Assembly (NCBI GenBank): GCA_965116435.1
Contig: OZ220686.1
Location: 325,005 to 389,004, forward strand
DNA from: Rhodothermales bacterium
GTDB lineage: Bacteria; Bacteroidota; Rhodothermia; Rhodothermales; VXPQ01
Length of the DNA stretch: 64,000 nt
Direction: 5' to 3'
This document shows, one piece after another, positions 17,993 through 54,627 of this stretch. How positions within the stretch are numbered: the stretch's first letter is position 1; each line of letters opens with the position of its first letter. The notes under the pieces were generated by a model, which was not told the DNA's origin, did not search any database, and saw only the letters and a program-made list of their open reading frames with translations. Made by a program: the position numbers and the translations under genes.

Positions 17993-18041
17993 CGCCCCCG
18001 GCCGATTTAATAATGCGTGTTCACCGAGTGAATAGTCATGG

Positions 18042-31768: not shown

Positions 31769-31773
31769 GAAGA

Positions 31774-32589: not shown

Positions 32590-32599
32590 GTCGTGCGGT

Positions 32600-34923: not shown

Positions 34924-35835
34924 CTAAAGCCCCAGGCTCTCCCGCACCTCGGCGAGCAGGGTGGAGGCGTCCTGGGCGGCGTCCACGTACAGGGCTTCGG
35001 AATGTCCCCGAAACCATGTTTCCTGGCGCTTGGCGTACCTGCGCGTGTTCTGCTTGATCAGGCGCGTCATTTCGGATTCGTCGATCTCGCCCTTGAGGAA
35101 CGAGATGGGTTCCCGGTAGCCGATGGTGCGCAACGGGTTGAGGGCCGGATCGTACCCCGCCTCGAGAAGGCCGCGCACTTCGTCCACTAGGCCGTCGGCC
35201 AGCATGGCGTCTGCACGGCGTTCGATGCGGTCGTAGAGTTCGGCCCGGTCGCGGCGCAAAATGACCGTCTGGAAGACATACGGACTCCGCCGCCGCGCCT
35301 GGTGAAAACGGCTGAGGGGTATGCCGGTCGCTTCGTACACCTCAAGGGCGCGGGCAAGGCGCTGCGTTTTGGTGGCGTCCATCGTGGCGGCAGCCCGGGG
35401 ATCGACCTTTTGCAGTGTGGCGTACAGCGCCTCCGGGCCGTCCTGCTCCAGGCGCCGCTGGACATCCGCCCGAACCGTAGCGGGAATGTCGGGAATGTCG
35501 GCCAGGCCATGTTCGAGGGCGTGCAGATACAGGGTGGAGCCGCCGGCGACGAGTGGAATGCGCCCGCGACGCAGAATATCTCCAATGCGATCCCGCGCCT
35601 CGTCCATGAATCGGCCTGCTGAAAAAGGCTCGCCAAGCGACCGTTCGTTCACGAAATGATGGGGGAGGCGTTCGAGAATGTTCGGGGCGGGCTTCGCTAC
35701 GCCAATGTGCAGTTCCCGATAGATCTGGCGACTATCCGTCGAGATGATTTCTATTTCAAGTATTTCTGAAATAGAAATGACTAGCTCCGTCTTGCCCACG
35801 GCAGTAGGACCTGTAATAACAGGTATTATTTTCAT
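34924..35835 (-). CDS. miaA: tRNA dimethylallyltransferase
   Basis: P-loop ITGPTAVGKT, with SRQIYRELHIGVAKP and the conserved tail TRRYAKRQETWFR. The start was set at MKIIPVI (35835). Confidence 0.9.
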   Translation of the reverse strand: MKIIPVITGPTAVGKTELVISISEILEIEIISTDSRQIYRELHIGVAKPAPNILERLPHHFVNERSLGEPFSAGRFMDEARDRIGDILRRGRIPLVAGGSTLYLHALEHGLADIPDIPATVRADVQRRLEQDGPEALYATLQKVDPRAAATMDATKTQRLARALEVYEATGIPLSRFHQARRRSPYVFQTVILRRDRAELYDRIERRADAMLADGLVDEVRGLLEAGYDPALNPLRTIGYREPISFLKGEIDESEMTRLIKQNTRRYAKRQETWFRGHSEALYVDAAQDASTLLAEVRESLGL

Positions 35836-36125
35836 TCCGTTATTGCTTGATTCGGGGTATTTGCGGGGAGTGCCAAGCACCTACCGGGCCTTGCGGCGGC
35901 AACGTTCAGGAGCGCGATACGGGGAGCAGCAGGGCGTCTGGTATGTATGTGGCCTATGGCGGCGGTTTCCAAAAACGAGGCAGGGGTTGCGTGGAGCCGG
36001 ACACGAGGCCGCGGGGTCTGCGGGATCGGGTTAGATTTTCGGGCAAACGGTTTTCAGTGCCTGTTGTTAAGGAAACACGGGGGTGGACGCAACGCGCAGG
36101 GGCGACGATTGCCGGACCGGAGCGG

Positions 36126-37118
36126 TCAAGGCGTTGTCTCGTCTATATGGATGTAGTCCGCCGCGCTGTCGCGCAGGCGGTCCCGTTGATGCACGTACAC
36201 CATGGTCGTTTCGATTTTCTTGTGTCGGGCGTGCGACTGCACCTGCTGAATGGAGGCCCCGGATTCGATGGCGAGAGTGCAGCCTGTGTGGCGGAGCGAA
36301 TGCGCCCCGATTTCCTTTGGAAGTCCGGCTCGCCGCGCCGTGCGATCCACAACGCCGTAGATGGAACGCTCCGAAAGGCGTTTCCCGAAACTGTTGTTGC
36401 TTAAAGAGCGCCAAAGGGGGCCGTCCGTAATGCCGTAATACGTTTTCATTCGGTCGATTTCTTCCACGACATGCGGGGGAATTTTCACGTACTGATCGGC
36501 GCCGCCCTTTGTGTCGGGCAAATCGAGCACCTGATAGTCGCCGAGCATGCGAATATCCTCGACGTTCATGGCGGCGGCCTCGGAACGGCGCAATACGCAG
36601 TGGAGCAGGGTGAGCAACAGGGCCCGGTCCCTTGGCGCCGAATGGGCTTGCTTGCCGTCCGGGCCAGGATTCGTCGCCGCCTGCACAAGCCGTCCGGCTT
36701 GCTCGGCGGTCAACACGATGCGGGCGCCGTCGCGGCCGCCCGATTTGCGGACCCGCCGCAAAACATGCCGGCTGGCCGGGTTGCGGGTCAATACGCCGAG
36801 AGCCACCAGCCATTCGAAAAATCCCCGAATGGCTGCGAGGCGGCGTTTGATGGTGGCGGGCTTGTAGCCGTTTTTTTCCATCTCCGCAATGTGCCGGTTA
36901 ATGTCGGTAAACGACAGTTCACGCACCGTCACCGTGTCCGCAAAATCGGATCCGAAGAAAGCCGCCAGATCGTCTCCGTAGGCTTTACGGGTTTGGGGGC
37001 GGTCGTACCGATCCAGAAACGCTTCGACAAGGTTGGCGTCCGGGCGGATAATGCCCGTAGCGACATCCATCAAGGCGATCAAGTCGGCGGAAGAGACGTT
37101 CTGGGACATGGGAGGCAT
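36126..37118 (-). CDS. Tyrosine recombinase, XerC/XerD-like (phage integrase family)
   Basis: 330 aa. It has an N-terminal SAM-like domain (TRKAYGDDLAAFF), and the catalytic region has RRSEAAAMNVEDI ... HSLRHTGCTLAIESGASIQQVQSHARHKKIETTMVYVH (R..H-R-H..Y). Confidence 0.85.
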   Translation of the reverse strand: MPPMSQNVSSADLIALMDVATGIIRPDANLVEAFLDRYDRPQTRKAYGDDLAAFFGSDFADTVTVRELSFTDINRHIAEMEKNGYKPATIKRRLAAIRGFFEWLVALGVLTRNPASRHVLRRVRKSGGRDGARIVLTAEQAGRLVQAATNPGPDGKQAHSAPRDRALLLTLLHCVLRRSEAAAMNVEDIRMLGDYQVLDLPDTKGGADQYVKIPPHVVEEIDRMKTYYGITDGPLWRSLSNNSFGKRLSERSIYGVVDRTARRAGLPKEIGAHSLRHTGCTLAIESGASIQQVQSHARHKKIETTMVYVHQRDRLRDSAADYIHIDETTP

Positions 37119-37832: not shown

Positions 37833-40649
37833 ATGGCGCAGGCGACCATAGACAGACTGATAATCAATTCCCCCTACAAGGAACCGGCAAGGCATTGGAA
37901 CTATGACCGCGCCTCGCGCCTGTTCGATCTCGCAGAGGGTCGGCGTCCGGCCGGATATGTTGTAGCTTCGCAGGACTCCAAGACCTTTGATGACCCTGGA
38001 ACCTTTGTAGAAATCCCTCTGGTTAATCAGATTCGCACCCGCGTCAAGAAGTGGCGCGACGCAGGGTATCCGGGCGTAACCGGCGTTACTCGCCGCCTGC
38101 TTCAGCACTGGACAGATCCAGAGGAATTCGCCGAACGACGATTCTTCTTTTGCCAGATTGAGGCTGCCGAAACACTGATCTGGCTTGCGGAAGCATCTTC
38201 CTCCGAGAAAGTAGGCATCGATATTCCAGCCGACGGGGGAAATTTCCAGCGGCTATGCGCCAAAATGGCGACGGGTTCAGGGAAAACCGTGGTTATGGCC
38301 ATGATCATCGCATGGCACATCCTGAACAAGGTCGCATTTCCACAGGACCGCCGATTCGCCAAAAATATTCTTGTGATTGCGCCGGGACTGACCGTCAAGA
38401 GCCGCCTGTCGGTTCTGAACCCCTCTCACCCGGAAAATTACTACCAGGCATTTCGCGTCCTCCCCTCCCCTATGCTGGACAAGCTCCGCCAGGGGAAGGT
38501 GCTTGTGCATAACTGGCATGCGCTCAACTGGGAGACGGACGAGAAAATCGCCAATAAACGCAGCGTGGACAAACGCGGAGCGAAGAGCAACGAAGCGTAT
38601 GTACGGGAAGTGCTTGGAGATATGGCGAATGCCCGAAACATACTGGTTATCAATGACGAAGCACATCATGCGTGGCGTGTTCCTGCCGGATCCGGTGCGC
38701 GAGGGATTAAAAAAGAGGATATCAAACCAGGGGACATCGAACAAGCCACGAAATGGATTGGCGGACTGGATCGAATAGACCAGGCTCGCGGGATCCTTGG
38801 GTGCTACGATTTTTCGGCGACGCCTTTTGTCCCGTCCGGCAAAAAAAGTTCGGAGGAAGCGCTGTTCGACTGGATCGTGAGCGATTTCGGGCTGAATGAC
38901 GCTATTGAAGCCGGTCTCGTCAAAACACCCCGCGTAGTGATCCGCGACGACGCCGTTCGAGACGCAAAAACCTACAAATCGCGGCTTTATCATATCTATA
39001 ACGATTCTGAAGTAAAGGACGACCTGAATCGAAAGGCCGAGCCAACGGCTCCTCTTCCCGACCTTGTTCTGAATGGCTATTACCTTCTCGGGTACGACTG
39101 GCGCGAAACAGCAAGGCAATGGCAGTCTCAAGGCTATAAGACCCGGCCAGCAATGATTACCGTGACAAATCGCACGGAGACGGCGGCGAGGATCAAGCAC
39201 TCTTTCGACAACGGCAAAATCCGCATTGACGAGCTTTGCGATGCGAAGCGAACGCTTCACATCGACTCGAAAGTCCTTGAAAAGGCCGAAGCCGCCGACG
39301 GGCCGATCGCCGAAAGCAACAAGAAATCTAAGCCAAAACAGCGCGCCGAATTTTTGCGCTTGCAGGTAGACACCGTGGGGCAGGAAGGAAAGCCCGGAGC
39401 GGATATCCAGAATGTGATCGCCGTGGGGATGCTATCCGAAGGCTGGGACGCCAGAACCGTAACGCACATCATGGGCCTGCGGGCCTTCACCAGCCAGTTG
39501 TTATGCGAACAGGTGGTAGGGCGTGGCCTGCGCCGCACCGCCTATGAAACGAATCCGGAAACCGGTCGCTTCGATCCGGAATACGTCAATATCTTTGGTG
39601 TGCCCTTTACGTTTTTGCCGCACGAATCGAAGCCAGGCGTAGTGCCGCCTCCGCCTAAGCCGAAAACCGAAATCAAACCTGATCCCGAAAAGGCGGCGTT
39701 CGAGATTCGGTGGCCCAATCTCGTTCGTATTGATCGCGTATTCCGTCCGCATTTAACCCTTGATCCAGATCAGGTAGCGCAGATCGAGTTGAGTGCAGGG
39801 CAAACCATTCGCATCGCCGAACTGGCGCCCGTGGTCGAGGGCAAGCCAGACTTGAGGAAGATATCCCTTATCGAACTCGACAAACTGGCTCGCGAGTTCC
39901 GTACCCAACGTATCGTGTTCGAAACGGCGGCGGAGGTATACGACCGGATGCAGACGGATTGGCAAGGCAGCCGGGAATTTCTGCTGGCCCAGTTGGTGAG
40001 GCTCATAGACAAATTCATCCGCTCCGACAGGATTGTCGTTACATCCTCCCTGTTCGACCAGGATCGTCTAAAACGCCGCCTGATCATTACGCTTAACATG
40101 ACCAGGATTGTCGAACATATCTGGCAGGCGATTCACTTCGAAAACGTCGAAAAACTGGAGCCGGTATTCGATTCGGACCGCCCTGTTTGCTCAACCGGAG
40201 ACATGATCACCTGGCATTCCAGCAAGCCTTGCGAACCGACCGAACACAGCCACATCAATTTCTGCGTGTACGACAGCGCCTGGGAGGCAACGGAAGCCTT
40301 CGCTCTGGATCGCAGCCCCCTCGTGGAGGCATGGGTGAAGAACGATCATCTCGGTTTCGAGGTGTTTTACGTGTATCGCGGGGTGGTCAGAAAATATCGC
40401 CCCGACTTTCTCGTCAGGCTGACCTCTGGCGCTATGCTGGTTCTGGAAGTCAAAGGCAAAGAGAGCGAGCAGGATCGTATCAAGCACGGGTTTCTCGACA
40501 GATGGGTTGCCGCCGTCAATGCGCATGGAGGGTTTGGGCGATGGACCTGGGCTGTTTCGAGGAATCCTGGCGATATTCACGATATCCTCACGAAAAATGT
40601 GTTGCCGGATGTGTCTAAAGGGATGTCGGATACTCTTGCGGGAACATAA
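37833..40649 (+). CDS. res: Type III restriction enzyme Res subunit (SF2 helicase plus C-terminal PD-(D/E)xK nuclease)
   Basis: Motif I MATGSGKTVVMA, motif II VINDEAHHAW, motif VI EQVVGRGLRR, and a C-terminal nuclease-like PDFLVRL....LVLEVKGKE. 938 aa and intact. Confidence 0.85.
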   Translation: MAQATIDRLIINSPYKEPARHWNYDRASRLFDLAEGRRPAGYVVASQDSKTFDDPGTFVEIPLVNQIRTRVKKWRDAGYPGVTGVTRRLLQHWTDPEEFAERRFFFCQIEAAETLIWLAEASSSEKVGIDIPADGGNFQRLCAKMATGSGKTVVMAMIIAWHILNKVAFPQDRRFAKNILVIAPGLTVKSRLSVLNPSHPENYYQAFRVLPSPMLDKLRQGKVLVHNWHALNWETDEKIANKRSVDKRGAKSNEAYVREVLGDMANARNILVINDEAHHAWRVPAGSGARGIKKEDIKPGDIEQATKWIGGLDRIDQARGILGCYDFSATPFVPSGKKSSEEALFDWIVSDFGLNDAIEAGLVKTPRVVIRDDAVRDAKTYKSRLYHIYNDSEVKDDLNRKAEPTAPLPDLVLNGYYLLGYDWRETARQWQSQGYKTRPAMITVTNRTETAARIKHSFDNGKIRIDELCDAKRTLHIDSKVLEKAEAADGPIAESNKKSKPKQRAEFLRLQVDTVGQEGKPGADIQNVIAVGMLSEGWDARTVTHIMGLRAFTSQLLCEQVVGRGLRRTAYETNPETGRFDPEYVNIFGVPFTFLPHESKPGVVPPPPKPKTEIKPDPEKAAFEIRWPNLVRIDRVFRPHLTLDPDQVAQIELSAGQTIRIAELAPVVEGKPDLRKISLIELDKLAREFRTQRIVFETAAEVYDRMQTDWQGSREFLLAQLVRLIDKFIRSDRIVVTSSLFDQDRLKRRLIITLNMTRIVEHIWQAIHFENVEKLEPVFDSDRPVCSTGDMITWHSSKPCEPTEHSHINFCVYDSAWEATEAFALDRSPLVEAWVKNDHLGFEVFYVYRGVVRKYRPDFLVRLTSGAMLVLEVKGKESEQDRIKHGFLDRWVAAVNAHGGFGRWTWAVSRNPGDIHDILTKNVLPDVSKGMSDTLAGT

Positions 40650-40666
40650 ACGTCTGGTTACACACC

Positions 40667-43197
40667 ATGCCGAAAAAGAAAGACATTGAAAGCTACGCGC
40701 ACACCGATAAGGAGCGGACGAACAACCCTCCCGTCGGGCTGGTAACCCCTGAAACCGATCGGGATCAAGGCAGGAAGGGCTATGCTCACGATCCTCATAT
40801 CGACCCACAACTCGTCTGGGCCGGAAAGGCGGAGCATACGTCGTTCGAGGTCCCGACCGTCTCGCTGCATGTGCACGAACGCATAGATGCGCGTACGATC
40901 ATCGAGGCGACGCGGAAACGCAATGGCGCGCTGCCCCAGCCTTCGTTATTTGAAGGTCTGGGGGAAAATCCGCCGCTTCGCCAAGCCATCGAGTTCTACC
41001 GGCACAAGCATAACTGGACCAACCGCCTCGTTGCGGGCGACAGCCTGCTCGTCATGAACAGCCTGCTGGAAAAGGAAGGGCTTGGCGGGCAGGTGCAGAT
41101 GATTTACATAGATCCGCCGTATGGAATCAGTTACGGATCGAATTTCCAGCCTTTTGTGAATACGCGAAATGTGAAGGACGGAGAGGATGGGGATTTGACT
41201 GCAGAACCGGAACAGATCCGCGCTTTTCGAGACACCTGGGAAATGGGCATCCATTCCTATCTGGCGTATCTGCGAGATCGCCTTCTGATTTCGCGGGAAC
41301 TACTCACCGAGAGCGGTTCCTGTTTCGTGCAGATCGGCGATGAAAACATCCACCGCGTGGGTATGGTGATGGACGAAATTTTCGGCGCAGAGAATCGCAT
41401 AGCTACCATATCCTTCGCCACAACGAGCGGAAGTTCCACGTCCACCCTGCCACAAGTAGCCGATTACCTTCTCTGGTACGCAAGGGATCACAAAAAGGTG
41501 AAATACCGGCAAATATATGAATCCCTGACGCGGAGTGAGATAGTAGACCTTTTCAATTGGGATGTCATGGTAGAATTGCCGGATGGCGCATGCCGGAAGC
41601 TTACCCCCCAGGAACGCTTTGATCCCGATGCATATTTGCCCGAAGGCGCTCGCATTTATCAACGCACCGGACTGGATTCGCAAGGTGTTTCTACAACAGG
41701 TCGCTCCGAGCCTTATGAATGGAACGGCAGGGTATTTCCTTGCGGGAAAAATCGCCATTGGTCCATTTCCAAAGAAGGCATGGACCGTTTGGCCGAGCTG
41801 GGCAGACTGGAAGCGCTTGCTGGCCAAGAGTCGCTCAGGTGGAGAAAATACGAAAATGAAGTGCCAGGGCGACGCATCAACAATGTCTGGCCAGTCAAAA
41901 TGTACCCCAGCACAAAATCCTATGTGGTGGAGACCTCTACGAAAGCCATCCAGCGTTGCCTGCTGATGACCACGGATCCCGGCGATCTTGTGCTTGATCC
42001 CACTTGCGGTAGCGGAACCACGGCCTTCGTCGCCGAGCAGTGGGGACGAAGATGGCTTACTTGCGATACCTCGCGCGTTGCTATCACACTGGCCAAACAG
42101 CGGCTGATGACGGCGCATTTCGACTATTACGAATTGGCGCATCCTGACGAGGGAGTAGGTAGCGGTTTTCGCTACAAAACAGTCCCGAAGGTTTCTCCCA
42201 AGGTTCTCACAGGCGACGAATCGCAATCTGATATAGTCCTCTACGACCAGCCCCTGAAAGACAATAAAAAGTTTCGCGTCACGGGTCCATTCACACTGGA
42301 AGCCGTGCCTGCGCCTACGGTAAAACCGCTGGACGATATACAAGATACCCCCCCCCCCCCCACACGCCACCAGATGACTCGGTTGCTCGCTCGGGAGAAA
42401 CGCTCCGCCAGAGCGACTGGCGCGACGAATTGTACAAAACCGGCATCCGAGGCAAGGCCGGGCAGCGTATCTCATTTGTCCGCCTGGAACCACTTCCTGG
42501 CTGTCACTGGCTACACGCCGACGGGGAGACGCGCTCTGATAATGCCGAAACGGACTCCGAACGGGTTGTTATTTCCTTCGGTCCCGATCATGCTCCATTG
42601 GAACAACGCCAGGTGGCCTTAGCCATTGAAGAGGCGCAAAACCTCGTTCCCAAGCCGAAAATCATCGTTTTTGCCGCTTTTCAGTTTGACCCCGAGGCTG
42701 CCAAAGATATCGACGAAACAAATTGGCCCGGCGTAACTTTACTCAAGGCGCAAATGAACGCGGACCTGCTGACGGGAGACCTGAAGAAAAAACGCTCCAG
42801 CAACGAAAGCTTCTGGCTTATCGGCCAACCGGACGTAGAATTGGAAACAATGCAAGACGGCAAACTGCGGGTATCCGTACTCGGATTCGACTACTACAAT
42901 ACAAAAACCGGCAAGCCGGAATCCGGCGGATCGGACCGAATCGCCGTGTGGATGCTGGACCCGGATTACGATGGCCGTAGCCTGTTTCCGCATCAGGTTT
43001 TCTTTCCTTTGGCCGGTCCCAAAGACGGCTGGACCCGCCTTGCGCGCAACCTGAAGGCCGAGCTCGACGAACGTCTCATAGAAGCCTATCGCGGCACAAC
43101 CTCCCTTCCCTTCGAGCCGGGCGAGCACCGGCGCGTGGCGGTCAAGATCGTGGACGACCGGGGCATTGAAAGTTTGAAAATTGTGGAGGTGGGTTGA
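40667..43197 (+). pseudogene. mod: Type III-like DNA methyltransferase (Mod, N6/N4 beta-class), split by a frameshift inside a C14 tract
   Basis: Motif IV IYIDPPYG precedes motif I LVLDPTCGSGTTAFVA. Frame 2 (40667-42622) leaves the expected sequence at the C tract. The conserved C-terminal domain (..DWRDELYKTGIRGKAGQRISF...AFQFDPEAAKDIDE...DYDGRSLFPHQVFFP) continues in frame 1 directly from the tract to 43197. A tract of C15 or C12 would give one ORF of about 840 aa. Confidence 0.8.
42348..42361 (+). repeat. Homopolymeric C14 tract at the mod frameshift
   Basis: Counted directly (3+10+1 C across the line breaks). Confidence 0.95.
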
Positions 43198-44021
43198 TGG
43201 AAAGGCCGAGTAAGAAGAAAGCGATGGAGCGTTTGCAGAAAGCCCGAGAGGCAATTAATGAATTGCGGAGTCCGGATATCCTACGTGATCAGAGTAGCTC
43301 TCCAAAATTCAAAAAGTGGCACCGAAATACCGAAATTGCTATCACTAACATATTTGGCAATTCTCGTCATATTGAAGATTTTAGAAATGTTCGGTATCGC
43401 CTGCTAGCGTATTCTGATATGACCCCCGACGGAGAGTTCATTGAAGCCTATATACACGGCTTGGATTCAGCAGATGCAATACTTGAGTCAATGCTTGAGG
43501 AGATTAAAGAATATTGGGACAATGACATTAATACATCAACACCACCTTCATCCAAAGAAATATTTCAGTTAGATACAAACAAAATATTTGTCATCCACGG
43601 TAGAGACGAAGGCACCCGAGATATGCTATCTGGATTTATCAAAAAATTAGAACTTCAGCCTGTGATACTATCGGAAAAATCAAATCAGGGACTCACGATC
43701 ATTGAAAAATTCGAGAAGTATTCAGAAGTCGGATTCGCGATAGCTTTGCTGACGCCCGACGACACCGGATCGCTTAAAGAAGCCGAAAACAAACCGAATC
43801 CACGCGCTCGGCAAAACGTGATCTTCGAATTGGGCTTCTTCATTGGAAAAATTGGGCGAGAACGCGTATGCGCCCTTACCAAAGGAAAGCTGGAAATACC
43901 TTCGGACTACTCCGGCGTTGTGTACATATCATTGGATGACTCTGGTGGATGGAAGCTCCAACTTTGCAAAGAACTCAAGGACGCTGGATACGCAGTAGAC
44001 GTAAATCGAATTATGGAGTGA
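43197..44021 (+). CDS. TIR-like domain protein (CAP12/Pycsar-effector-type, COG4271-like) with an N-terminal helical domain
   Basis: The C-terminal 140 aa, KIFVIHGRDEGTRDMLSGFIKKLELQPVIL....IIEKFE....FAIALLTPDD......RARQNVIFELGFFIGKIGRERVCAL.KG.LEIPSDYSGVVY, match the TIR-like nucleotide-binding family as I remember it. The ATG overlaps the mod stop (TGATG). The gene is very low in GC. Confidence 0.7.
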   Translation: MERPSKKKAMERLQKAREAINELRSPDILRDQSSSPKFKKWHRNTEIAITNIFGNSRHIEDFRNVRYRLLAYSDMTPDGEFIEAYIHGLDSADAILESMLEEIKEYWDNDINTSTPPSSKEIFQLDTNKIFVIHGRDEGTRDMLSGFIKKLELQPVILSEKSNQGLTIIEKFEKYSEVGFAIALLTPDDTGSLKEAENKPNPRARQNVIFELGFFIGKIGRERVCALTKGKLEIPSDYSGVVYISLDDSGGWKLQLCKELKDAGYAVDVNRIME

Positions 44022-44062
44022 ATAAAAAAATAAGGTTTATATTTTTTCATAATGGTGTATAA

Positions 44063-44323
44063 ATGCTGTTCATCCGAAAAGCCGAAGCGGAACAATTGCT
44101 TCTTTCAGGCTTTGCCCGGGGTATGGTTAGCACCCATCGCCAGGGAAACCTGAGCCTGCCCAAGTTTGTATGGGCCGTGGACGACCAGGGCGAGGTTTAC
44201 GAAGCAAAACTGGACGGCGACGGACCCGGCTATCACGGGTACCGAATCAACGAATATCGAGACGCAGGCTCGCGCGTAATGCGCAAACAGGTGCTAAGGG
44301 CATGGAAACGACGGAGCAATTGA
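44063..44323 (+). CDS. Hypothetical small basic protein (86 aa)
   Basis: ATG ORF containing KFVWAVDDQGEVYEAKLDGDGPGYHGYRINE. It overlaps the next ORF by 22 nt. No family was recognised. Confidence 0.45.
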   Translation: MLFIRKAEAEQLLLSGFARGMVSTHRQGNLSLPKFVWAVDDQGEVYEAKLDGDGPGYHGYRINEYRDAGSRVMRKQVLRAWKRRSN

Positions 44324-45054
44324 AATTTACGTTCGTCCCGGAGCCGCTGGAGGAAGGCTCCCCGGAAGAGAAGGCTTCTTTCGGCAAGGTTTCCATTGCC
44401 GCAAACGGGCGCGTACTGACCGAAGGCATTGCGTTGCTGGAGGACAACGAGCTCGTCAGCGGGTCCCATGTTTCTGCCTATCATATGGCCGAATGGCTGC
44501 TGTGGAACTGGTGGCGGTTGCTTTGGGAGCCCCGTCCGGAAGGCGTGGAAAACGGCAAGGACGAGGATAAAGACGATACATGGTTCGAATGGGTTTTTGC
44601 GCACAATTTGTCCTCCATCGGCGAGGGTTATCTGTGGCCGGATATCGAAATGGCGTCGGACGGCGGGCTGATGCATCTGGCCTCTTCGCCGACCGGAGAT
44701 CCGAATGAAAAGGTGTTTCGCTTCGTGGGAGCATCGCGGCTGGAGACCATCCCGGTCGGGGCATTCATGAAGGCCGTGGACGAATTCGCCTGTGCCGTGC
44801 TGGAGCGCCTGGACGAGGCAAATATTCGGGATACCAACCTGCATGTTCTCTGGCGTCAGTTGGCGCGGGAACGGGAGGACAAGGCCGCGGCGGCGTTTCG
44901 CCGCATGGAGGCGATACTGGGATATGATCCCGGCGAAGGAGAGGACGACGAGATACGGGAATACCTTGCGGACGCCGCAACATTAGGAATGGATATTCGC
45001 CTTGCTCGCATTGCAGGACACTTGCTCGGAAGTTCCGCCGTTTCCGACGAGTAA
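44302..45054 (+). CDS. Hypothetical acidic protein (250 aa)
   Basis: The ORF was trimmed to ATG 44302 (METTEQLKF). It has the Trp-rich motif HMAEWLLWNWWRLLWEP. It ends 13 bp from the convergent Calx-beta gene and may be 3'-truncated. Confidence 0.5.
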   Translation: METTEQLKFTFVPEPLEEGSPEEKASFGKVSIAANGRVLTEGIALLEDNELVSGSHVSAYHMAEWLLWNWWRLLWEPRPEGVENGKDEDKDDTWFEWVFAHNLSSIGEGYLWPDIEMASDGGLMHLASSPTGDPNEKVFRFVGASRLETIPVGAFMKAVDEFACAVLERLDEANIRDTNLHVLWRQLAREREDKAAAAFRRMEAILGYDPGEGEDDEIREYLADAATLGMDIRLARIAGHLLGSSAVSDE

Positions 45055-45067
45055 GGCCTCCCCTACC

Positions 45068-47773
45068 CTACCGTAGCAGCGTCATTTTCCTCGTGAGCGT
45101 TTCTCCGTTCGCCTGGAGTCGATAGACGTACAGGCCCGACGGCAGGCTGTCCGCGTCGAAGCGTACGGTATGCGTTCCTGCCGGGCACACCCCGTCTACG
45201 AGGACGCCTACGCTGCGCCCGGTGGCGTCGAATACTTCCAGGCGGACGTGTTGGGGGGCGGGAAGCTCGTATTCTATCGCCGTCGAGGGGTTGAACGGGT
45301 TCGGGTAGTTCTGGCCCAGCGCAAACGCATCCGGGAGTTCCCCTTCGGGAGATTCTATCGACGTTACGTTTTCATCTTCCGAGATGATCACGTCCACAGA
45401 TGCGGGCGTCCCTCTCGAAAAACCGGCGGGCAAGGCTCCGAACGTTACCGTGAACGTTTCGTCCTCCATGTCGTCGTCCTTTGTGGTGAGGATCCAGTCC
45501 GTTCCGAAGGGTTCGTTTGCGTCTATGACGATGGTTGCGAGGGCCACGTAGTCGCCTGTTTCGCCGTCGTTTGTGGTGAAGACGAGGGGCAAGGTCACCA
45601 CGCTGGGTACGGTATGCGCCAGTTCGGCGTGGATGGTGGCTCTTCTGCCTTCGTAGATGGGGTTCGGGTACACAGCCAGCGTAATCTGGGTCGGGTCGTT
45701 GCCGCCACCGGGGTCGCCGCCACCGGGGTTTCCTCCGCCCGGGTTTCCACCACCGCCGCCCGAATCATCGTCGTTCACCGTCACTGTCGCGGAGTTGGCG
45801 CTGCCCACCGTGTAGCCATTGCCGTTTTTCAGCGTTACCGTCACCGAGCCGTTCGCCTCATCCGCGTTGTCGTCCTCGGTGGAGATGGCGACGGTTGTGC
45901 TGGCTGCGGAGATGCTCCGCGTCTTGTCGCCAAGTTGGCCGGACGCCAAGAACGTTCCGCTTTGCGAGACCGTGTAGGCGACCGTGATGCTGCTACCCGG
46001 CGCAGGGTTCGACGAAATGGTGAACGAAGCATCGCCGCCCTCGGTCACCGCCGACCCACCGGTGATGGTTAGCTCCGGCGTCGCTGTAGCCCGATCGTTG
46101 TCCGTAATCGTCAGCGTGTGCATAGCTCTCGTCGTGCCGACATTGTAGCCCGTGCCGCTACCCAGCGTCAAAATAACCGTCTCGCTGCCTTCCACCACGC
46201 TGTCGTCCGTGATGGCGACCGGAATGCTCGCCGTGCCCGAAGTCCCAACGGTGATTGAGCCGCTATTACTACTCACCCCGTTGATAGAATAATCCGTCCC
46301 GCGCGTGGCGCCGCCGGAGAGCATGTAGTTCACCGTAACGTTCCCACTTGGCGCAGGGCTGAGATTCACCGCGACGTTTTGTGTCCCGCCGCCCTCCGCC
46401 GCGCTCGAAGCGGACGCCCCGAAGTTCGCTTCGGGCGTACTTGGCGCATCGTCGTCCGTCACCGTCACCGTCACGCTGGGGATAGAGAACGTCGTCAACG
46501 CCGCCGGACGGTACTTCTGGCCGTCCCCGTCGCCCGCCTCGATCGTGTGCGTGATCGTACGGGTGCGCTCGCCGCCCGTATTCACGATGTGGTCGTTCTG
46601 GCCCGTGATCGTCACCGTCTGCGCCGTGCTCCAGTTGCTTGTCGTGAACGTCAGCGTATCTTTTGCCTTCGGCTTCGCATTCCCGCCGGGACCGTCCACG
46701 AACGCTGCGCCTCCGGCGGTCACGGTGATGATCACTTGCCCCGCAGGCCGCGTGTCCAGGCCCACGGTGTAGGTCGCCGTGCCTCCGTTCTCCGCGACCG
46801 TGCGGGCGCTCTGCGATACGGTCACTCCCGCCGTGTCGTTGTCGTTCACGGTCACCGTCGCGGAGTTCGCGGTGCCCACCGTATAGCCCGTGCCCGCGTT
46901 TACGGTCACCGTCACGCTGCCGTTGTTCTCGTCCGTATCGTCGTCCACGGTGGAGACGGAGTGGGTAGCGGAGCCGGACGTGGGTACGGAAACCGTCTTG
47001 CTGCTGCCGATCAATCCAGAGGTTGCGAAGTTGCCGCTCTCGCTCACGGTCAGTTTGACGGTGAGGGCCGAGGCCGGCGCAGGGCTTGCCGTCACCGTGA
47101 AGCTGGCATCCGCGCCCTCGGTCACGGAAGACGATCCCCCCGCAATAGTGACCTCCGGGAGGGTTACGGTGTCGTCGTCAAGGATCGTGTGGGTATGGGT
47201 CGATGTGCCGAGGGTGACATCCGAACGGGCGTTGCCGAGAAAGGATAGCGTTGCGATCACCGTCTCGTCGGACTCAACGTCGGTGTCGCCCCGCACCTGG
47301 ATGGCTATGTGAGGATAATCAAGGCTGGAAAAAGCATCCGCTCCCAATGATGCCTTTTCGCAGGTGCTTGCACGGGGGCTGTTGGACAATATCGTTCGGT
47401 AGTCTGCGCCTGGGGTGCCCCAACCACCTTGACCATCATCTTGCGTATTGATGGTCGCCGTGCCACTGAAACAGATCTCAAAAGGCACAGTACCTGGTAC
47501 CTGCTTTGACAGGGTCACCGTGTAGGCAAGGCTCCTTATACCCGAATCCCCTTCGTTCGCGTCCGCAGGTCCACTGATAGACAGGGTGGCGGCCTGCGCG
47601 GCGGCCTCGTAGACCGGTCCCCATACCATACACAGCGCGGCCAGCCACGCTATCCATAGAATGCGGCGACAGGAAAGGGCGCGCCGCGCCGCCGAAGCAG
47701 CGCCTGATTTACAAGATAGCCCCCCCCCCCTCACGTTCGAGGAATCATTCTCCCGAAGAAACGAAGAAATCAT
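45068..47773 (-). CDS. Secreted Calx-beta repeat protein with T9SS C-terminal sorting domain (paralogue A, in frame)
   Basis: 901 aa. The leader is MISSFLRENDSSNVRGGGLSCKSGAASAARRALSCRRILWIAWLAALCMVWGPVYEAAAQA. It has Calx-beta modules, a linker GGGGGNPGGGNPGGGDPGGGN, and the C-terminus FALGQNYPNPFNPSTAIEYEL...LYVYRLQANGETLTRKMTLLR. Confidence 0.85.
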   Translation of the reverse strand: MISSFLRENDSSNVRGGGLSCKSGAASAARRALSCRRILWIAWLAALCMVWGPVYEAAAQAATLSISGPADANEGDSGIRSLAYTVTLSKQVPGTVPFEICFSGTATINTQDDGQGGWGTPGADYRTILSNSPRASTCEKASLGADAFSSLDYPHIAIQVRGDTDVESDETVIATLSFLGNARSDVTLGTSTHTHTILDDDTVTLPEVTIAGGSSSVTEGADASFTVTASPAPASALTVKLTVSESGNFATSGLIGSSKTVSVPTSGSATHSVSTVDDDTDENNGSVTVTVNAGTGYTVGTANSATVTVNDNDTAGVTVSQSARTVAENGGTATYTVGLDTRPAGQVIITVTAGGAAFVDGPGGNAKPKAKDTLTFTTSNWSTAQTVTITGQNDHIVNTGGERTRTITHTIEAGDGDGQKYRPAALTTFSIPSVTVTVTDDDAPSTPEANFGASASSAAEGGGTQNVAVNLSPAPSGNVTVNYMLSGGATRGTDYSINGVSSNSGSITVGTSGTASIPVAITDDSVVEGSETVILTLGSGTGYNVGTTRAMHTLTITDNDRATATPELTITGGSAVTEGGDASFTISSNPAPGSSITVAYTVSQSGTFLASGQLGDKTRSISAASTTVAISTEDDNADEANGSVTVTLKNGNGYTVGSANSATVTVNDDDSGGGGGNPGGGNPGGGDPGGGNDPTQITLAVYPNPIYEGRRATIHAELAHTVPSVVTLPLVFTTNDGETGDYVALATIVIDANEPFGTDWILTTKDDDMEDETFTVTFGALPAGFSRGTPASVDVIISEDENVTSIESPEGELPDAFALGQNYPNPFNPSTAIEYELPAPQHVRLEVFDATGRSVGVLVDGVCPAGTHTVRFDADSLPSGLYVYRLQANGETLTRKMTLLR
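47720..47730 (-). repeat. Homopolymeric G11 tract (C11 on the + strand) in the leader of paralogue A
   Basis: Counted directly. It encodes RGGG between ATG 47773 and the signal peptide. Confidence 0.95.
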
Positions 47774-47851
47774 GCTGTCCTCTGGTTTTGTTCAACGTAT
47801 CCTTGTATTCAACATAACCTGCATGCGTAATAATATACGATGCGCCCCACC

Positions 47852-47881
47852 ATTTTTTCAAGAGGAAGTATGTCGCTTAAA
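47852..47881 (-). promoter_or_regulatory. Candidate sigma70-like promoter of paralogue A (TTGAAA-18 nt-TATATT)
   Basis: The sense strand reads TTGAAAAAATGGTGGGGCGCATCGTATATT, about 78 nt upstream of the ATG. The same motif with the same spacing is conserved upstream of paralogue B. Confidence 0.3.
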
Positions 47882-48581
47882 CCCGCCCTTCCAGATACGC
47901 CTTGCGGGTCTTTTCATCAAAGCGTTCGATGGCGTAGCGGAGCATGGTTCGAGGCATGTTGCGGTAATGGCGGCGCAGAAAGGCTTCTTCGGCAGCGCGG
48001 TCCTGTTTTCCCACTTCGCGCAACATCCACCCTACGGCCTTGTGAATGAGGTCCTCCTTGTCGTTCAGCAGTTGTTCGGCCATCAGAAGAAATTCGTCGA
48101 AGCCGCCCCGTTTGATATACCAGTAGGCGGCGATTACCGCAATGCGGCGCTTCCACAGGCTTGCGTCGCGGACCCACTCGAAAAGCAGGTCCTTCTTTCC
48201 TGCCTCCAGATGCGCTCCGACGATCTTGTGCGCAGAGGCATCGACCAGATCCCAGTTGTTGACGTACTCGACCCGTTTCAGATAGAGATCGAACATCGCT
48301 TGCTTTTGCGCGGCGTCTCCGCGTTCGTATCGCCGGATTATCATAAAGAGCGCGCAAAGCCGGTCTTCATGCCACGGGGATATGAGCAATTCTTCCACTG
48401 CGGACATATCCGCCGCGTCGCAGGCCCGGGCCAGTTTGCGAAGCGCCGGAACGCGAATGCCCCGGAACTGGTCCCCTTCTCCATATTCGCCGGGCCCGGT
48501 TCGGAAAAAACGCGCGGAATGGGCCGCAATGTCGGGATTGCCCAGCGCCTTGAGGCGAGCCTGTATGTCTGTCCGGGTCAT
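47877..48581 (-). CDS. DNA alkylation repair protein (AlkD/AlkC-like HEAT-repeat glycosylase family)
   Basis: The ORF was trimmed to ATG 48581 (MTRTDIQARLKALGNPDIAAHSARFF). It has GIRVPALRKLA, NNWDLVD, WKRRIAVIA and HKAVGWMLRE motifs, which are typical of the family. Confidence 0.8.
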   Translation of the reverse strand: MTRTDIQARLKALGNPDIAAHSARFFRTGPGEYGEGDQFRGIRVPALRKLARACDAADMSAVEELLISPWHEDRLCALFMIIRRYERGDAAQKQAMFDLYLKRVEYVNNWDLVDASAHKIVGAHLEAGKKDLLFEWVRDASLWKRRIAVIAAYWYIKRGGFDEFLLMAEQLLNDKEDLIHKAVGWMLREVGKQDRAAEEAFLRRHYRNMPRTMLRYAIERFDEKTRKAYLEGRV

Positions 48582-48720
48582 GAGGGCGTTCGGGGGAGGC
48601 GTTACAATACGAACGGATGGGGACTCCGTGCGAGTACAAGAATCCGCCCTAAAATACGGTTTTTCGGCCACAGCGGCGCGCCTGGGGGAAATAGTTCGAG
48701 GGCGGACCGCTTCCTTCGCC

Positions 48721-48801
48721 CTACCGCAGCAACGTCATTTTCCGTGTCAGCGTTTCTCCGTTCGCCTGGAGCCGATAGACGTACAGGCCGGAAGGCAGGT
48801 T
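48721..48801 (-). pseudogene. 81-bp relic of the 3' end of a further Calx-beta/T9SS-CTD paralogue
   Basis: The reverse strand reads NLPSGLYVYRLQANGETLTRKMTLLR-stop, which is near-identical to the ends of paralogues A and B. It sits 27 bp from the genuine stop of paralogue B. Confidence 0.8.
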
Positions 48802-48827
48802 ATTCTATGCTGCCACTTCTCCCCAAC

Positions 48828-51800
48828 CTACCGCAACAGCGTCATTTTCCTGGTGCGCGTTTCGCCGTTCGCCTGGAGGCGATAGACGTACAGGCCCGAG
48901 GGCAGGTTGTCCGCGTCGAAGCGTACGGAATGCGTTCCTGCCGGGCGGATCCCGTCTACGAGGACGCCTACGCTGCGCCCGGTGGCGTCGAACACTTCCA
49001 GGCGGACGTGTTGCGGAGTGGGCAACTCGTATTCTATCGCCGTCGAGGGGTTGAACGGGTTCGGATAGTTCTGGCTCAGGGCAAACGCTTTCGGGAGTTC
49101 TCCTTCGGGAGATTCTATCGACGTTACGTTTTCATCCTCGCTGATGATTACGTCCACAGATGCGGGCGTCCCTCTCGAAAAACCGGCGGGCAAGGCTCCG
49201 AACGTTACCGTGAATGTTTCGTCCTCCATGTCGTCGTCTTTCGTCGTGAGAATCCAGTCCGTTCCGAAGGGTTCGTTTGCGTCAATGACGATGGTTGCGA
49301 GGGCCACGTAGTCGCCTGCTTCGGCGTCGTCTGTGGTGAAGACAAGCGGCAAGGTCACCACGCTGGGTACGGTATGCGCCAGTTCGGCGTGGATGGTGGC
49401 TCTTCGGCCTTCGTAGATGGGGTTCGGATATACGGCCAGCGTAATCTGGGTCGGGTCGTTGCCGCCACCGGGGTTTCCTCCGCCCGGGTTTCCACCACCG
49501 CCGACACCTGGGGCCGTCGAATCGTCGTTGTCGGTGATGGTGAGCGTGTGGGTCGTCGCACTGCCCAGCGTGTAGCCCGCGCCGCGGGTAAGGGTCAGGA
49601 TGACCGTCTCGGCGTTCTCGACGGCGCTGTCGTCGTTGATGGCAACAGGGATGTCTGCGGCGCTCGCCCCGGGGGCGATCGTCAGCGAACCTGAGTTCTG
49701 GATGGTGAAGTCGTTGCCGCTGCCCGCCGTCGCGGTGCCGGAAACGCTGTAGCCGAGCGAGAAGCCGCGCGAAGGCGCCGGGGAGATGTTGACCGTCACA
49801 TTGTGCGTGCCGGCGCTCTCGGCCGCGCTCGAAGAGACCGCCGCGAAGGACGCCGTGGCGATGGCCTCGACATCGTTGTCCTCGATGGTGAGCGTCGCCT
49901 CGGTGATTGACCCCGCCGTGACGCCAGCCGGCAGGTTCGCCGTGTCGATGGCCACCCTGAAGGTCTCATCCCCTTCAAAGGCCGTGTCCTCAAGGATGGG
50001 AATGTCAATGGAGTAGCGGGTATTGCCGTCCGCCTTGAAGACCAGTTGGCTAACCAGTGTGTAGTCCGCGCCGCCCGTCGCAGTGATGTCCGTAAAGATC
50101 AGCGGAACCGTAATATCGCGTCCACTCGCCGGCGTCACAGTAAAGGTCGGTTGGGCAACACCTGCACCTTCATTGGCGGCGAAGGCGTCCCGAATGAAGG
50201 ACAGCGTTACCGAAGACGGTGCATCGGTGATCGTCATCGTTTGGGTCGCGCCGCCGAGTGACAGCGTCACCGTCTCGTTCGACTCAGACAGGTTGTCCCC
50301 AAGGGTCTCCAGATGCAGCGGCCCCGCGGTACGGCGGCGACCCTGCAAGATCGCACCGTCGAAGGTTATCGAAGGATTGTTGCCGTTGAGGCCGCTACAG
50401 GTGGCGACCGCTGCTGATTCCACAGACCTGCAGGCCAGCCGGTAGTCCGTCCCGAGCGTGGCGGCGCCACCGATGGTCAGCGGCAGCGTTACTGTCTCGC
50501 TGTTGCCCAACGCCTCGCTTAAATATATATTGAAATAGACGACTGCGCCTTCAGGCAAGGTGGTAACACCGCTGCCGGAACTAAGTTGTGCGGTGACCGG
50601 CGCATCGTCGTCCGTCACCGTCACCGTCACGCTGGGGATAGATAATGACGAGAATGACACCGGACGGTACTTCTGGCCGTCCCCGTCGCCCGCCTCAATC
50701 GTGTGCGTGATCGTACGGGTGCGCTCGCCGCCCGTATTCACGATGTTGTCGTTCTGGCCCGTGATCGTTACCGTCTGCGCCGTGCTCCAGTTGCTTGTCG
50801 TGAACGTCAGCGTATCTTTTGCCTTCGGCTTCGTATTTCCGCCGGGACCGTCCACGAACGCCGCGCCTCCGGCGGTCACGGTGATGGTCACTTGCCCCGC
50901 AGGCCGCGTGTCCAGGCCCACGGTGTACGTAGCCGTGCCTCCGTTCTCCGCGACCGTGCGGGCGCTCTGCGATACGGTCACGCCCGCCGTGTCGTTGTCG
51001 TTCACGGTCACCGTCGCGGAGGAGTTGGAACTGCCCACCGTATAGCCCGTGCCCGCGTTTACGGTCACCGTCACGCTGCCGTTGTTCTCGTCCCTATTGT
51101 CGTCCACGGTGGAGACGGTGTAGGTAGCGGAGCCGGACGTGGGTACGGAAACCGTCTTGCTGCTGCCGGTCGATCCAGAGGTTGCGAAGTTGCCGCTCTC
51201 GCTCACGGTCAGTTTGACGGTGAGGGCCGAGGCCGGCGCAGGGCTTGCCGTCACCGTGAAGCTCGCATCCGCGCCCTCGGTCACGGAAGACGATCCTGCC
51301 GCAATAGTGACCTCAGGGAGGGCTACGGTGTCGTCATTGAGAATCGTGTGGGTATGGGTCGATGTGCCGAGGGTGACGCCGGCAGGGGGGGTGTTTCTTA
51401 ACCTCAACGTTGCGATCACCGTCTCGTCGGGCTCAACGTCGGTGTCGCCCCGTACCTGGATGTCTATGCGAGTATTTGCGAGAGAGCCGCCTGCCTGATG
51501 TGCTGAATGGAAGCAGGTGGTTCCAGTGGCGCCGCCGTCGGTTCTCGTCCGGTAGTCCGCGCTTGAGCTCCAACCATTAAATGTGGTATTCGCAGTTGCC
51601 GTGCCACTGAAACAAAGCTCCCACTCCACAATGCTTGATACCGCCTGTGACAGGGTCACCGTGTAGGTACGGGTCCTCGCGCCCGAATTCCTCTCGTTTG
51701 CGTCCGCGGGTCCACTGAGCGACAAGGTGGTGTTGTTCTGCGCGGCGGCCTCGGAGATCGGGCCCCATACGGTACACACCATACACAGCGCGGCCAGCCA

Positions 51801-51940
51801 CGCTATCCATAGAACGCGGCGAGCGAAAAGGACGCGCCGCGGCGCCGAAGCAGCACCTGATTTACAAGATAGCCCCCCCCCCCCCTCACGTTCGAGGAAT
51901 CATTCCCAGAATCGTTCCCCCGAAGAAACGAAGAAATCAT
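48828..51940 (-). pseudogene. Calx-beta/T9SS-CTD paralogue B, with its start codon out of frame because of a G13 tract (candidate phase-OFF allele)
   Basis: The body ORF 48828-51782 (984 aa) starts only at a Met inside the hydrophobic core (MVCTVWGPISEAAAQ). The homologous leader MISSFLRGNDSGNDSSNVRGGGG starts at ATG 51940 in another frame and stops at 51803. G11 or G14 would fuse the two. Confidence 0.8.
51873..51885 (-). repeat. Homopolymeric G13 tract (C13 on the + strand) in the leader of paralogue B
   Basis: Counted directly (8+5 C across the line break). Confidence 0.95.
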
Positions 51941-51999
51941 TGCTTTCCTCTGGTTTTGTTCAGCGTATCCTTGCAGTTGGCATAACCTGCATGCGCAAT

Positions 52000-52029
52000 A
52001 ATATACTATGCGCCCGACCATTTTTTCAA
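52000..52029 (-). promoter_or_regulatory. Candidate sigma70-like promoter of paralogue B (TTGAAA-18 nt-TATATT)
   Basis: The sense strand reads TTGAAAAAATGGTCGGGCGCATAGTATATT, conserved with the paralogue A upstream region. Confidence 0.3.
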
Positions 52030-52140
52030 GAAGAGTTATGTCTCCCCAGGCGGGTCCGAACCATCTCTCCGGGAGCCTGGCCGAAACGATCCCTATCTGG
52101 AAGTCTCTGGCGAAGCGTCCGCCCCGGCTGTACAAGTTTA

Positions 52141-52299
52141 GGATGCACTGATCAAATCCACTTCGATCAGCGCTTCACGTACGCAAGTAGCGTTTGTAAT
52201 GATTCTATCGTTAAAATCATCGGAAAACACGGCGTTTTGCGACGCCGGGGTCGTGAAGCGCCCTTCGGGAGGCATCGAGGGGTGCGCGAGGCGGACGCA

Positions 52300-52304
<5 letters not shown>
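52141..52304 (+). repeat. Copy 2 of the approximately 165-bp dispersed element (see 15328-15490)
   Basis: It aligns by eye with the reverse complement of 15328-15490. It lies upstream of paralogue B in the same orientation relative to the gene as copy 1 has to gene 3. Confidence 0.85.

Positions 52305-54627
<2,323 letters not shown>

Follow-up and report, generated by a model that had tools for sequence, protein, structure and literature searches.

Evidence for recombination among paralogous genes of Calx-beta-like type IX secretion cargo in a Rhodothermales bacterium

How do two genes of one genome come to be nearly identical towards both ends and to share no DNA homology in the middle? The question is raised by genes A and B, which lie on a 64,000-nt stretch of contig OZ220686.1 (assembly GCA_965116435.1, positions 325,005 to 389,004) from a Rhodothermales bacterium, hereafter the window; coordinates count from its first letter. 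Gene A (45068-47773, minus strand) is an open reading frame (ORF) of 901 aa starting at ATG 47773 and encodes a cargo protein of the type IX secretion system (T9SS), of the architecture termed type I here. Gene B (48828-51940, minus strand) is its type III paralogue, for which an ORF is listed at 48828-51782; its leader ATG at 51940 is out of frame. An initial annotation, made from the sequence alone, had proposed that such genes exchange cassettes by recombination anchored in their 3′ ends, so that exposed domains are shuffled while the secretion tag is kept. We find that gene conversion among the paralogues is demonstrated, and that homologous recombination between its own members, on three different scales, very probably shapes the T9SS Calx-beta-like adhesin family to which A and B belong.

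Both proteins are modular, the modules being defined by a per-domain parse; a whole-protein BLASTP of A vs. B merged the repeats and was uninformative. In A the order is leader, signal peptide, D1, D2, D3, A4, A5, Gly-rich linker, Dz and C-terminal domain (CTD). B has the same order, with B4-B5-B6 in place of A4-A5 and a D1 designated D1b. Using a Pfam cut-off of 27 bits, the Por_Secre_tail CTD (PF18962 / TIGR04183-type) is found at the extreme C-terminus (33.2 bits in A, 35.5 bits in B), and Calx-beta (PF03160) is found in the gene A protein as a whole (31.4 bits) as well as in the individual modules A4 (29.2 bits), B5 (59.9 bits) and B6 (34.8 bits). D2, B4 and Dz have no Pfam match and D3 has only a weak match to LapA. 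An AlphaFold2 model of D1 (predicted local distance difference test, pLDDT, 83) has NCX CBD2 and CALX CBD1 as its best Foldseek matches (E = 1.9e-5, TM 0.60/0.71). Based on the Pfam matches and on the match of the D1 model to Calx-beta CBDs, A and B are strings of Calx-beta-like beta-sandwich modules.

Measured by BLASTN and MAFFT, the identity between A and B differs from block to block. The homology starts at about 47876 / 52044 and stops ~10 nt beyond the stop codons. Its 5′ block (A 46443-47874, matching B 50599-52042) reaches ~100 nt upstream of the start codon and begins with the upstream promoter region (86.4% nucleotide identity) and the leader and signal peptide (93.9%). Identity is 71.6% in D1 (47171-47593 in A, minus strand, residues 61-201; 51330-51737 in B), 95.5% in D2 and 95.3% in D3, or 95.4% for D2-D3 together (46448-47170 in A, minus strand; 50604-51329 in B; core A/B tract ~46555-47150). 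The middle cassettes, namely A4 (Calx-beta) and the D2-like module A5 in A (45764-46447, minus strand) and B4, B5 and B6 in B (49507-50603, minus strand), have no DNA homology and measure 684 vs. 1097 nt. Beyond them follows the 3′ arm, i.e. the Gly-linker, Dz, CTD, stop codon and ~10 nt downstream (45058-45763 in A, minus strand; 48818-49506 in B), with 98.4% identity in the linker, including a 43-nt exact match (A 45716-45758 = B 49461-49503), 93.7% in Dz and 91.9% in the CTD; as one BLASTN block (A 45058-45739 vs. B 48819-49499), it is 92.2% identical over 682 nt. By Fisher test, block identity differs between D1 and D2+D3 (p = 7e-29) and between D2+D3 and Dz+CTD (p = 0.045). The near-identity of the 3′ ends and of a block in the 5′ half, as well as the strong divergence of the first domain after the signal peptide, had been noted by eye in the initial annotation and are confirmed by these figures, with coordinates that agree to within a few bases and similarities well above what chance would give. 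The middles, which it had called completely different, are indeed without homology at the DNA level, but both consist of Calx-beta-like modules of one kind, the amino acid identity between A4 and B6 being 54% and A5 being a 61% paralogue of D2.

The locus has counterparts on contigs from two other samples (L004 and L005), which carry CopA, a family gene, alkD and a family gene in that order. In the window, the copper P-type ATPase gene (CopA, 52300-54627; domain families taken from the L004 and L005 orthologues) lies upstream of B, and the alkD-like DNA-alkylation repair gene (47877-48581, minus strand; PF08713, 217 bits) lies between B and A. The flanks of L004 and L005 are 97.0-97.7% identical to those of the window, and the strain baseline of synonymous divergence (dS), taken from CopA, alkD, DUF5117 and IMPDH, is 0.044-0.089; by these two values, the three are strains of one species.

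Is recombination needed to explain the mosaic? Without it, the blocks would reflect the constraint on each domain (a fast D1; a slow D3, Dz and CTD) together with ordinary domain indels. Such an explanation can point to the fact that the same profile is seen against every family member (amino acid identity of 61-92% in D1, 91-98% in D3 and 96-99% in Dz), and that the ratio of nonsynonymous to synonymous divergence (dN/dS) is raised in D1 (0.44-0.85; dN between A and B is 0.34 there). However, dS itself is uneven: between A and B it is 0.40 in D1, 0.06 in D2, 0.09 in D3, 0.22 in Dz and 0.20 in the CTD. In addition, positional orthologues of the different strains show a dS of 0.11-0.46 (mostly 0.14-0.36) in every segment, ~2-6x that of the flanks. 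Trees of different segments also conflict. In the DNA trees and scans, which took in 10 sequences, the neighbour-joining (NJ) tree of D1 unites the genes at the same position (W_B, i.e. gene B of the window, with L4_g1 and L5_g1) at 100% bootstrap. In the NJ tree of D2+D3, that position clade receives 0%, and it is the three L004 paralogues that form a clade at 100%; the two paralogues of L005 likewise group by genome (94% in D3). The pairwise homoplasy index (PHI) test is significant for D1 (p = 0.0055), D2-D3 (p = 0.016) and D2-D3-Dz-CTD (p = 0.0005), and in Dz-CTD the relationships are star-like with 65% of informative site pairs incompatible. Finally, two different D1 types are found attached to one and the same B4-B6 block of 1.1 kb. 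With all of this against it, constraint without recombination is highly improbable.

A scan for the nearest relative along B shows where the switches lie. In D1 the sequences nearest to B are its positional orthologues; over ~600 nt of D2-D3 it is A (96-97%), at the end of D3 the L005 genes, and in Dz a gene that lies at a different locus. Recent conversion between A and B shows most clearly in D2-D3 and not at the 3′ end. Taken together, the uneven dS (0.06-0.40 along A/B), the tree conflict at 100% bootstrap, the significant PHI values and the switches of nearest relative refute a uniform divergence along the genes; the non-uniform divergence with breakpoints that the recombination proposal calls for is what we observe.

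The middle cassettes themselves also differ between strains at the same locus. The slot after CopA (position 1) holds type III (B4-B5-B6) in the window and L004, and type I (A4-A5) in L005, with the D1 type unchanged. The slot after alkD (position 2) holds type I in the window and type II, which has no A4, in L005. Since the window and L005 are the closer pair by their flanks, parsimony would make type III the ancestral state at position 1 and L005 the replaced one. L004 carries a third family gene and a second, 5′-truncated alkD (L004 13064-13110 and 13732-17129), alkD being part of a ~3.7-kb unit that is duplicated in L004. Both the middle cassette and the copy number therefore differ among strains at the orthologous locus. 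Across the family, three or four architectures of the middle are freely combined with the D1 types, the alternatives being A4-A5, A5 alone, A4-A4-A5 and B4-B5-B6. Four D1 clusters each occur with two architectures (clusters 1 and 2 with types I and III, clusters 3 and 7 with types I and II). For example, D1 is 94% identical at the amino acid level between the type I protein P0017 and the type III protein P0027 (cluster 1), and 100% identical between type I P0013 and type II P0020 (cluster 3). Furthermore, B6 of B is 97% identical to that of P0027 at another locus (L006) vs. 91% to that of its positional orthologue. In a second syntenic pair (L003/L007, flanks 96-98% identical), orthologous positions have differing D1 clusters and an A4 duplication.

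The central part of the initial proposal, i.e. that recombination shuffles exposed domains while the secretion tag is kept, is upheld by the dS values, the tree conflict, the PHI test and the strain differences. The role it had given to the CTD-coding end as the homology anchor is not demonstrated: swaps of the middle are limited by the end of D3 on the left and the Gly-rich linker on the right, ~700 nt upstream of the stop codon, and the recent A/B tract lies in D2-D3. Given these limits, the homology arm on the right comprises the linker, Dz and CTD in full (700 nt) rather than the CTD end in particular.

Several observations weigh against recombination among the family's own copies or narrow its reach. 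Run on the CTD by itself, the PHI test gives no significance (p = 0.79), and Dz-CTD shows no genome-wise clustering; because of these two results, we infer exchange in the 3′ arm from the excess dS and the incompatible site pairs (61-65%) and not from clean tracts. The trees are NJ trees on short segments. No donor of the B4-B5 block is found outside type III genes, to which both B4 and B5 are confined, though no protein-database search aimed at this block was made. D1 is not always protected from exchange, as the D1 types differ between L003 and L007. Finally, with 10 sequences, conversion within a genome is not fully distinguishable from alleles taken in from other strains. The last point leads to an account in which the mosaic results mainly from allelic exchange between strains, through DNA uptake and homologous recombination via the conserved flanks, intragenomic conversion being minor. 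Positional orthologues that are 2-6x more diverged than their flanks are in line with it, as are the B6 of B that is closest to a gene from another sample and the D1 types that differ at orthologous positions of the second locus (L003/L007); moreover, such exchange has been described for T9SS cargo of Porphyromonas gingivalis (Dashper et al., PMC5266723). The clustering of D2-D3 by genome (L004 99-100%, L005 94% in D3), however, needs exchange within a genome, and we regard strain-to-strain exchange as the main source of the mosaic as rather unlikely. The two processes are not mutually exclusive.

What, then, is the partial gene end beside gene B? The initial annotation had reported an 81-bp orphan copy of the gene end next to the stop codon of B, and such a copy (R) is indeed present at 48719-48799, with 90% identity to the end of A and 88% to that of B. 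R comprises the last 27 codons and the stop codon (48719-48804, minus strand), is placed 23-27 nt beyond the stop codon of B, and by tblastn (48724-48804) reads NNLPSGLYVYRLQANGETLTRKMTLLR followed by a stop codon; its 8 differences from the end of A are all synonymous. Together with a spacer (48805-48827), it forms the second unit of a 107-nt tandem module, each unit consisting of 81-84 nt of gene end and a ~26-nt spacer, GTTGGGGAGAAGTGGCAGCATAGAATAA. There are two such units in the window, L005 and L006, and three in L003 and L007; Tandem Repeats Finder (TRF) gives 2.8 copies with 94% matches in L003. TRF reported nothing at 48500-49100 of the window, because only ~1.8 diverged units are found there. 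The spacer is present at three different loci (in the window, L003, L004, L005, L006 and L007) and begins with the sequence that normally lies downstream of family genes, which argues that the module arose once and was then carried along with the 3′ parts of genes to at least three loci that are not syntenic. Thus, R is not the local scar of an exchange at the A/B locus for which it had been taken, being a unit of a module shared by three loci and several strains.

L004 retains the spacer, followed by just 7 nt from the start of the second unit, which an ACCTGC microhomology joins to the middle of alkD; a full gene end, the same intergenic region and alkD occupy the place that R has in the window. 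Such an arrangement would be expected if R had crossed over unequally with a gene end farther downstream, duplicating the ~3.7-kb unit, and a microhomology deletion had followed. The reverse history, with three genes ancestral and a deletion in the other strains, may also apply, as the sequences are too scrambled for the direction to be decided. Unequal crossing-over may therefore use R as a substrate. The R copies of the window and L005 differ at 4 positions in 81 nt, and the variants involved, which are synonymous, are also found in functional gene ends. Since these variants circulate in functional ends, and since all differences between R and A are synonymous, R is best explained by continued conversion between it and functional gene ends.

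Orphan ends could also be passive tandem duplications, with units of 107 nt and 75 nt made by replication slippage or microhomology, that vary in copy number and have nothing to do with cassette exchange. This would account for the regular 107-nt period (2.8 copies in L003, three in L007), for a spacer that opens with the normal downstream sequence of family genes, for a gene 3 copy that takes in 10 nt past the stop codon, and for the conservation of R, which is no better than that of neutral sequence (4 differences in 81 nt between the window and L005). It sits poorly with the presence of the same module at three non-syntenic loci, which indicates that it has moved with 3′ gene segments, with the circulating synonymous variants that R shares with functional ends, and with the gene end, intergenic region and alkD that stand in R's place in L004, as a crossover between R and a gene end predicts. 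On balance, a purely passive origin of the orphan ends is possible but somewhat doubtful. The orphan of gene 3 (18044-18077, plus strand) is likewise a duplication of local origin. It consists of 7 sense codons, a stop codon and the 10 nt that follow, lies 41 nt beyond the original (17969-18002) and matches the end of gene 3 at 31/34 positions vs. 24/34 for genes 1 and 2. It had earlier been described as 36 bp long (18042-18077), and the copy holds up at 34 nt.

A further possibility is that the orphan ends are attachment-site (att) duplications left by an integrative element with the 3′ ends of CTD genes as its target, or a functional RNA element of the 3′ untranslated region. Site-specific integration classically leaves a gene's 3′ end behind as a direct repeat, and there is an integrase gene at 36126-37118; the repeats, however, are only 23-27 nt apart with neither an element nor an integrase between them, and the integrase is 8 kb away, beside miaA, where it bounds a different island. 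Rfam gives no match in 44000-53000, and no terminator-like sites are reported in or beside R and its spacer. Both origins are thus very improbable.

The mosaic could also have been produced by machinery of another kind, or by no machinery at all. Hypervariability of D1 through a diversity-generating retroelement, an invertase or a shufflon, or an assembly artefact behind the whole pattern, is to be regarded as barely plausible: assemblies made independently from two other samples show these architectures again. For a retroelement, D1-like DNA is found only in A and B within the 64 kb, with no template repeat, in a window that was not exhaustively scanned for reverse transcriptase. For an invertase or shufflon, there are no inverted repeats of at least 20 nt in 43000-53500. 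Silent cassettes of the pilE/pilS type do not agree with the finding that partial copies are limited to R (81 nt) and the gene 3 end of 34 nt, with no variable-region fragments in the window. Rhs/CdiA-like orphan modules were likewise rejected, as the orphans carry only the constant, secretion-tag end.

Recombination within the family very probably acts in three ways. Short conversion tracts homogenise D2-D3 among the paralogues of one genome and scramble the polymorphisms of Dz-CTD. Double crossovers or long conversion tracts replace the whole middle, with D2-D3 as the left arm and Gly-linker-Dz-CTD as the right arm. Unequal crossing-over between tandem copies alters the number of genes, and the orphan gene end may take part in it. 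D1 at the A/B locus mostly escapes homogenisation, and the 107-nt repeat arose once and then travelled between loci with its 3′ flank. The mosaic itself, the uneven dS, the conflict of trees, the polymorphism of cassettes and gene number at orthologous positions and the spread of the 107-nt module are shown directly by the data. We infer the directions and mechanics of single events, as well as the surface exposure of the family and its adaptive role, which would be to vary adhesion or antigenicity towards the host, phage or grazers.

Which part of the protein would lie farthest out? Once the CTD has been removed, T9SS cargo is anchored to the cell surface by a site close to its C-terminal end, so D1 would be the module most distal from the anchor point. 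D1 is hypervariable in the loops between its conserved strands. Its variable patches are residues 31-40, 51-97 and 117-124, and two invariant cysteines (domain positions 41 and 78) bracket the most variable stretch; the pair could close a disulfide-bounded variable loop. At the other end of the protein, five CTD genes within the 64-kb window make T9SS machinery (PorK/L/M/N, Sov, PorU/V) in the same genome likely. The protein search recovered a tight family of ~27 proteins with many further cluster members. There are 2-4 family genes per locus or contig and at least six to eight members per genome; a scan of species-representative genomes gave a single distant CTD match (L001), and searches for exact copies of the alkD-like protein (with two choices of start) and of the annotated form of A had no match.

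Do both genes make a secreted protein? By inspection, the putative signal peptide of A reads RRALSCRR-ILWIAWLAALCMVWGPV-YEAAA with predicted cleavage before Q; it fits the AxA rule and needs a start at ATG 47773. Gln at +1 is the Bacteroidetes 'Q-rule', which the +1 residue of A fits. In B, the signal-peptide segment is out of frame with every ATG, GTG or TTG. The frame is set by a poly-G tract in the leader, which has 11 G and is in frame in A (47720-47730, minus strand) and has 13 G and is out of frame in B (51873-51885, minus strand); with this tract and no alternative start codon, B as assembled would lack a signal peptide. In each of the 14 leaders examined, a run of 9-13 G separates a conserved ATG (MISSFL...) from the codons of the signal peptide, which only a run of 11 brings into frame. 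The other indels in the leader (3, 9, 12 and 72 nt) are all multiples of three, which argues for a translated leader, and the length of the poly-G differs between strains at 4/4 orthologous positions compared. A promoter-like TTGAAA-N18-TATATT is found at identical sites upstream of A (47832-47861) and B (52000-52029), on the minus strand with 10/12 matches each, and is kept upstream of all aligned family copies. This layout suggests that the poly-G tract is a candidate slipped-strand on/off switch. It should be noted that homopolymer lengths in long-read assemblies can be wrong; that in-frame copies (5/14) are near the chance expectation of 1/3; and that transcriptional slippage is an alternative to phase variation. 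Protein length is unusable as an on/off readout (P0023 cluster, 1020 vs. 970 aa), as gene callers also truncate the in-frame A, P0017 and P0027.

Other features of the leaders and gene starts were also observed. The leaders of A and B (~47690-47700 and ~51850-51860) do not have a 72-nt in-frame segment, flanked by direct repeats CAGGCGCTGCTTCGGCG, that most of the relatives on L002-L007 carry, and a 12-nt in-frame duplication (GATTC..GAAT) is present in B and not in A. The public gene calls for P0001, P0017 and P0027 begin at an internal Met (MVWGP...) and have no signal peptide; such internal starts occur even where the ATG farther upstream lies in frame. Nearly all family genes are given an internal start by automatic gene callers, so that the cargo would be mis-annotated as non-secreted.

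Long G/C runs are common in the window as a whole, with seven runs of at least 10 vs. ~0.5 expected from base composition by our own estimate. In gene 2, a leader run at 10549-10558 lies between the ATG and a signal-peptide-like segment of the CTD gene at 10279-15075, a layout like that of A and B. Further runs of 10-12 are found at 4853-4862, in the 5′ part of the ORF listed for gene 1 (4698-10232); at 19079-19088, upstream of an ABC-ATPase gene; and at 30983-30994, within ORF 28831-31185. In addition, a C14 tract (42348-42361) is found near the 3′ end of an N6_N4 DNA methylase ORF (40667-42622, plus strand), the reading frame of which continues past the tract in an overlapping ORF (42430-43197, plus strand); a gene for a ResIII restriction subunit (37833-40649) adjoins it. 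Such a tract in a type III methylase gene is a classic phase-variable setting, and judging by this arrangement, the gene looks like a type III restriction-modification (RM) 'mod' gene with a phase-variable tract, i.e. phasevarion-like.

The methylase gene is part of a strain-specific island (37833-44021) downstream of A, which contains the type III RM genes and a CAP12/Pycsar-type TIR effector (43194-44021) and is bounded by the integrase (36126-37118) and miaA (34924-35880). In L005, this integrase-miaA pair also comes after the family locus, but the gap is far smaller and holds no island genes; in L004, only short ORFs with no Pfam matches are seen in the island interval, and the examined stretch ends before any integrase. 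Repeats elsewhere in the window include 32-nt tandem units upstream of gene 1 (4255-4539), 345-nt domain repeats within gene 2 (12836-14152), three 142-nt tandem units at 31423-31772, and a 12-nt periodic repeat (32586-32965) within ORF 31774-33513.

What kind of organism carries the family? IMPDH of the window shares 88% identity with its counterpart in 'Bacteroidetes bacterium SB0662_bin_6', the closest named relative, which comes from a sponge metagenome; the values are 78-79% for Rhodothermales metagenome-assembled genomes and 77% for Rhodothermus marinus. The SB06xx bins include Entoporibacteria, a sponge-associated clade, and a sponge-associated Rhodothermales lineage is therefore the likely host of the family. 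If the system is real, the surface of this bacterium must be under strong selection that fluctuates, be it through recognition by a host, phage or grazers, and the findings provide sequence-defined loci whose on/off states and cassette arrangements can be read from long-read metagenomes. As a tentative extension, which we hold to be less than even in probability, the family may form a two-layer contingency system of an uncultivated lineage, in which poly-G slippage switches each adhesin gene, conversion and cassette swaps re-assort the exposed modules, and the variable adhesins engage or mimic sponge glue or evade phage. A population of cells would then show ever-changing combinations of adhesins. 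The link to sponge self-recognition glue comes from sponge aggregation factors, which are likewise built of Calx-beta domains (PMC5400394, PMC11670116). In the collection of papers searched, none joins T9SS, phase variation and homopolymeric tracts.

How does this family compare with known systems? Among T9SS cargo, the nearest precedent is kgp/rgpA/hagA of P. gingivalis, in which a 'combinatorial modularity' of domains that is incongruent with strain phylogeny (Dashper et al. 2017, PMC5266723) has been ascribed to domain rearrangement, gene conversion and allelic exchange (PMC5266723). These genes, like ours, encode T9SS cargo with a conserved CTD and include paralogues that share near-identical repeated adhesin modules. 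Their modules, however, are of the cleaved-adhesin/DUF2436 kind, with protease domains in the gingipains, whereas Calx-beta-like modules are found here; PMC5266723 mentions neither a 5′ homopolymeric tract nor an orphan DNA copy of the CTD end; and P. gingivalis is a human pathogen, unlike the marine Rhodothermales host.

Two further features set the silent-cassette systems (Neisseria pilE/pilS and Borrelia vlsE) apart. There too, gene conversion diversifies an exposed protein, but from promoter-less variable cassettes into one expression site, whereas all copies here are complete and have a promoter. Surface families diversified by gene conversion together with repeat-tract switching are textbook in vertebrate pathogens; to our knowledge, they are hardly documented for T9SS cargo outside Porphyromonas. 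The Neisseria opa family consists of many complete genes with their own promoters, in which the frame depends on a repeat within the signal-peptide region and recombination re-assorts the variable segments. It shares with the A/B family the complete paralogues with their own promoter, the 5′ coding repeat that sets the frame of each copy and the re-assorted segments. In contrast, Opa proteins are 8-stranded outer-membrane beta-barrels with a CTCTT repeat in place of multi-domain T9SS cargo with poly-G, and their switching is experimentally proven, while the A/B family has a candidate switch. In Helicobacter pylori, babA, babB and sabA have conserved ends, divergent middles and chimeras formed by gene conversion, and 5′ repeat tracts switch them on and off. 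The conserved 5′ and 3′ ends, the divergent middles and the 5′ coding repeat tracts are all shared with our family, but the protein class and secretion route are others, and there are two or three loci vs. at least six to eight members here; SabA repeat tracts are treated in one H. pylori study (PMC2715451). In its overall logic, the family is closest to Neisseria opa and H. pylori bab/sab. It is a known kind of system in an unusual lineage and secretion class, with a 107-nt gene-end repeat and possibly a phase-variable leader tract.

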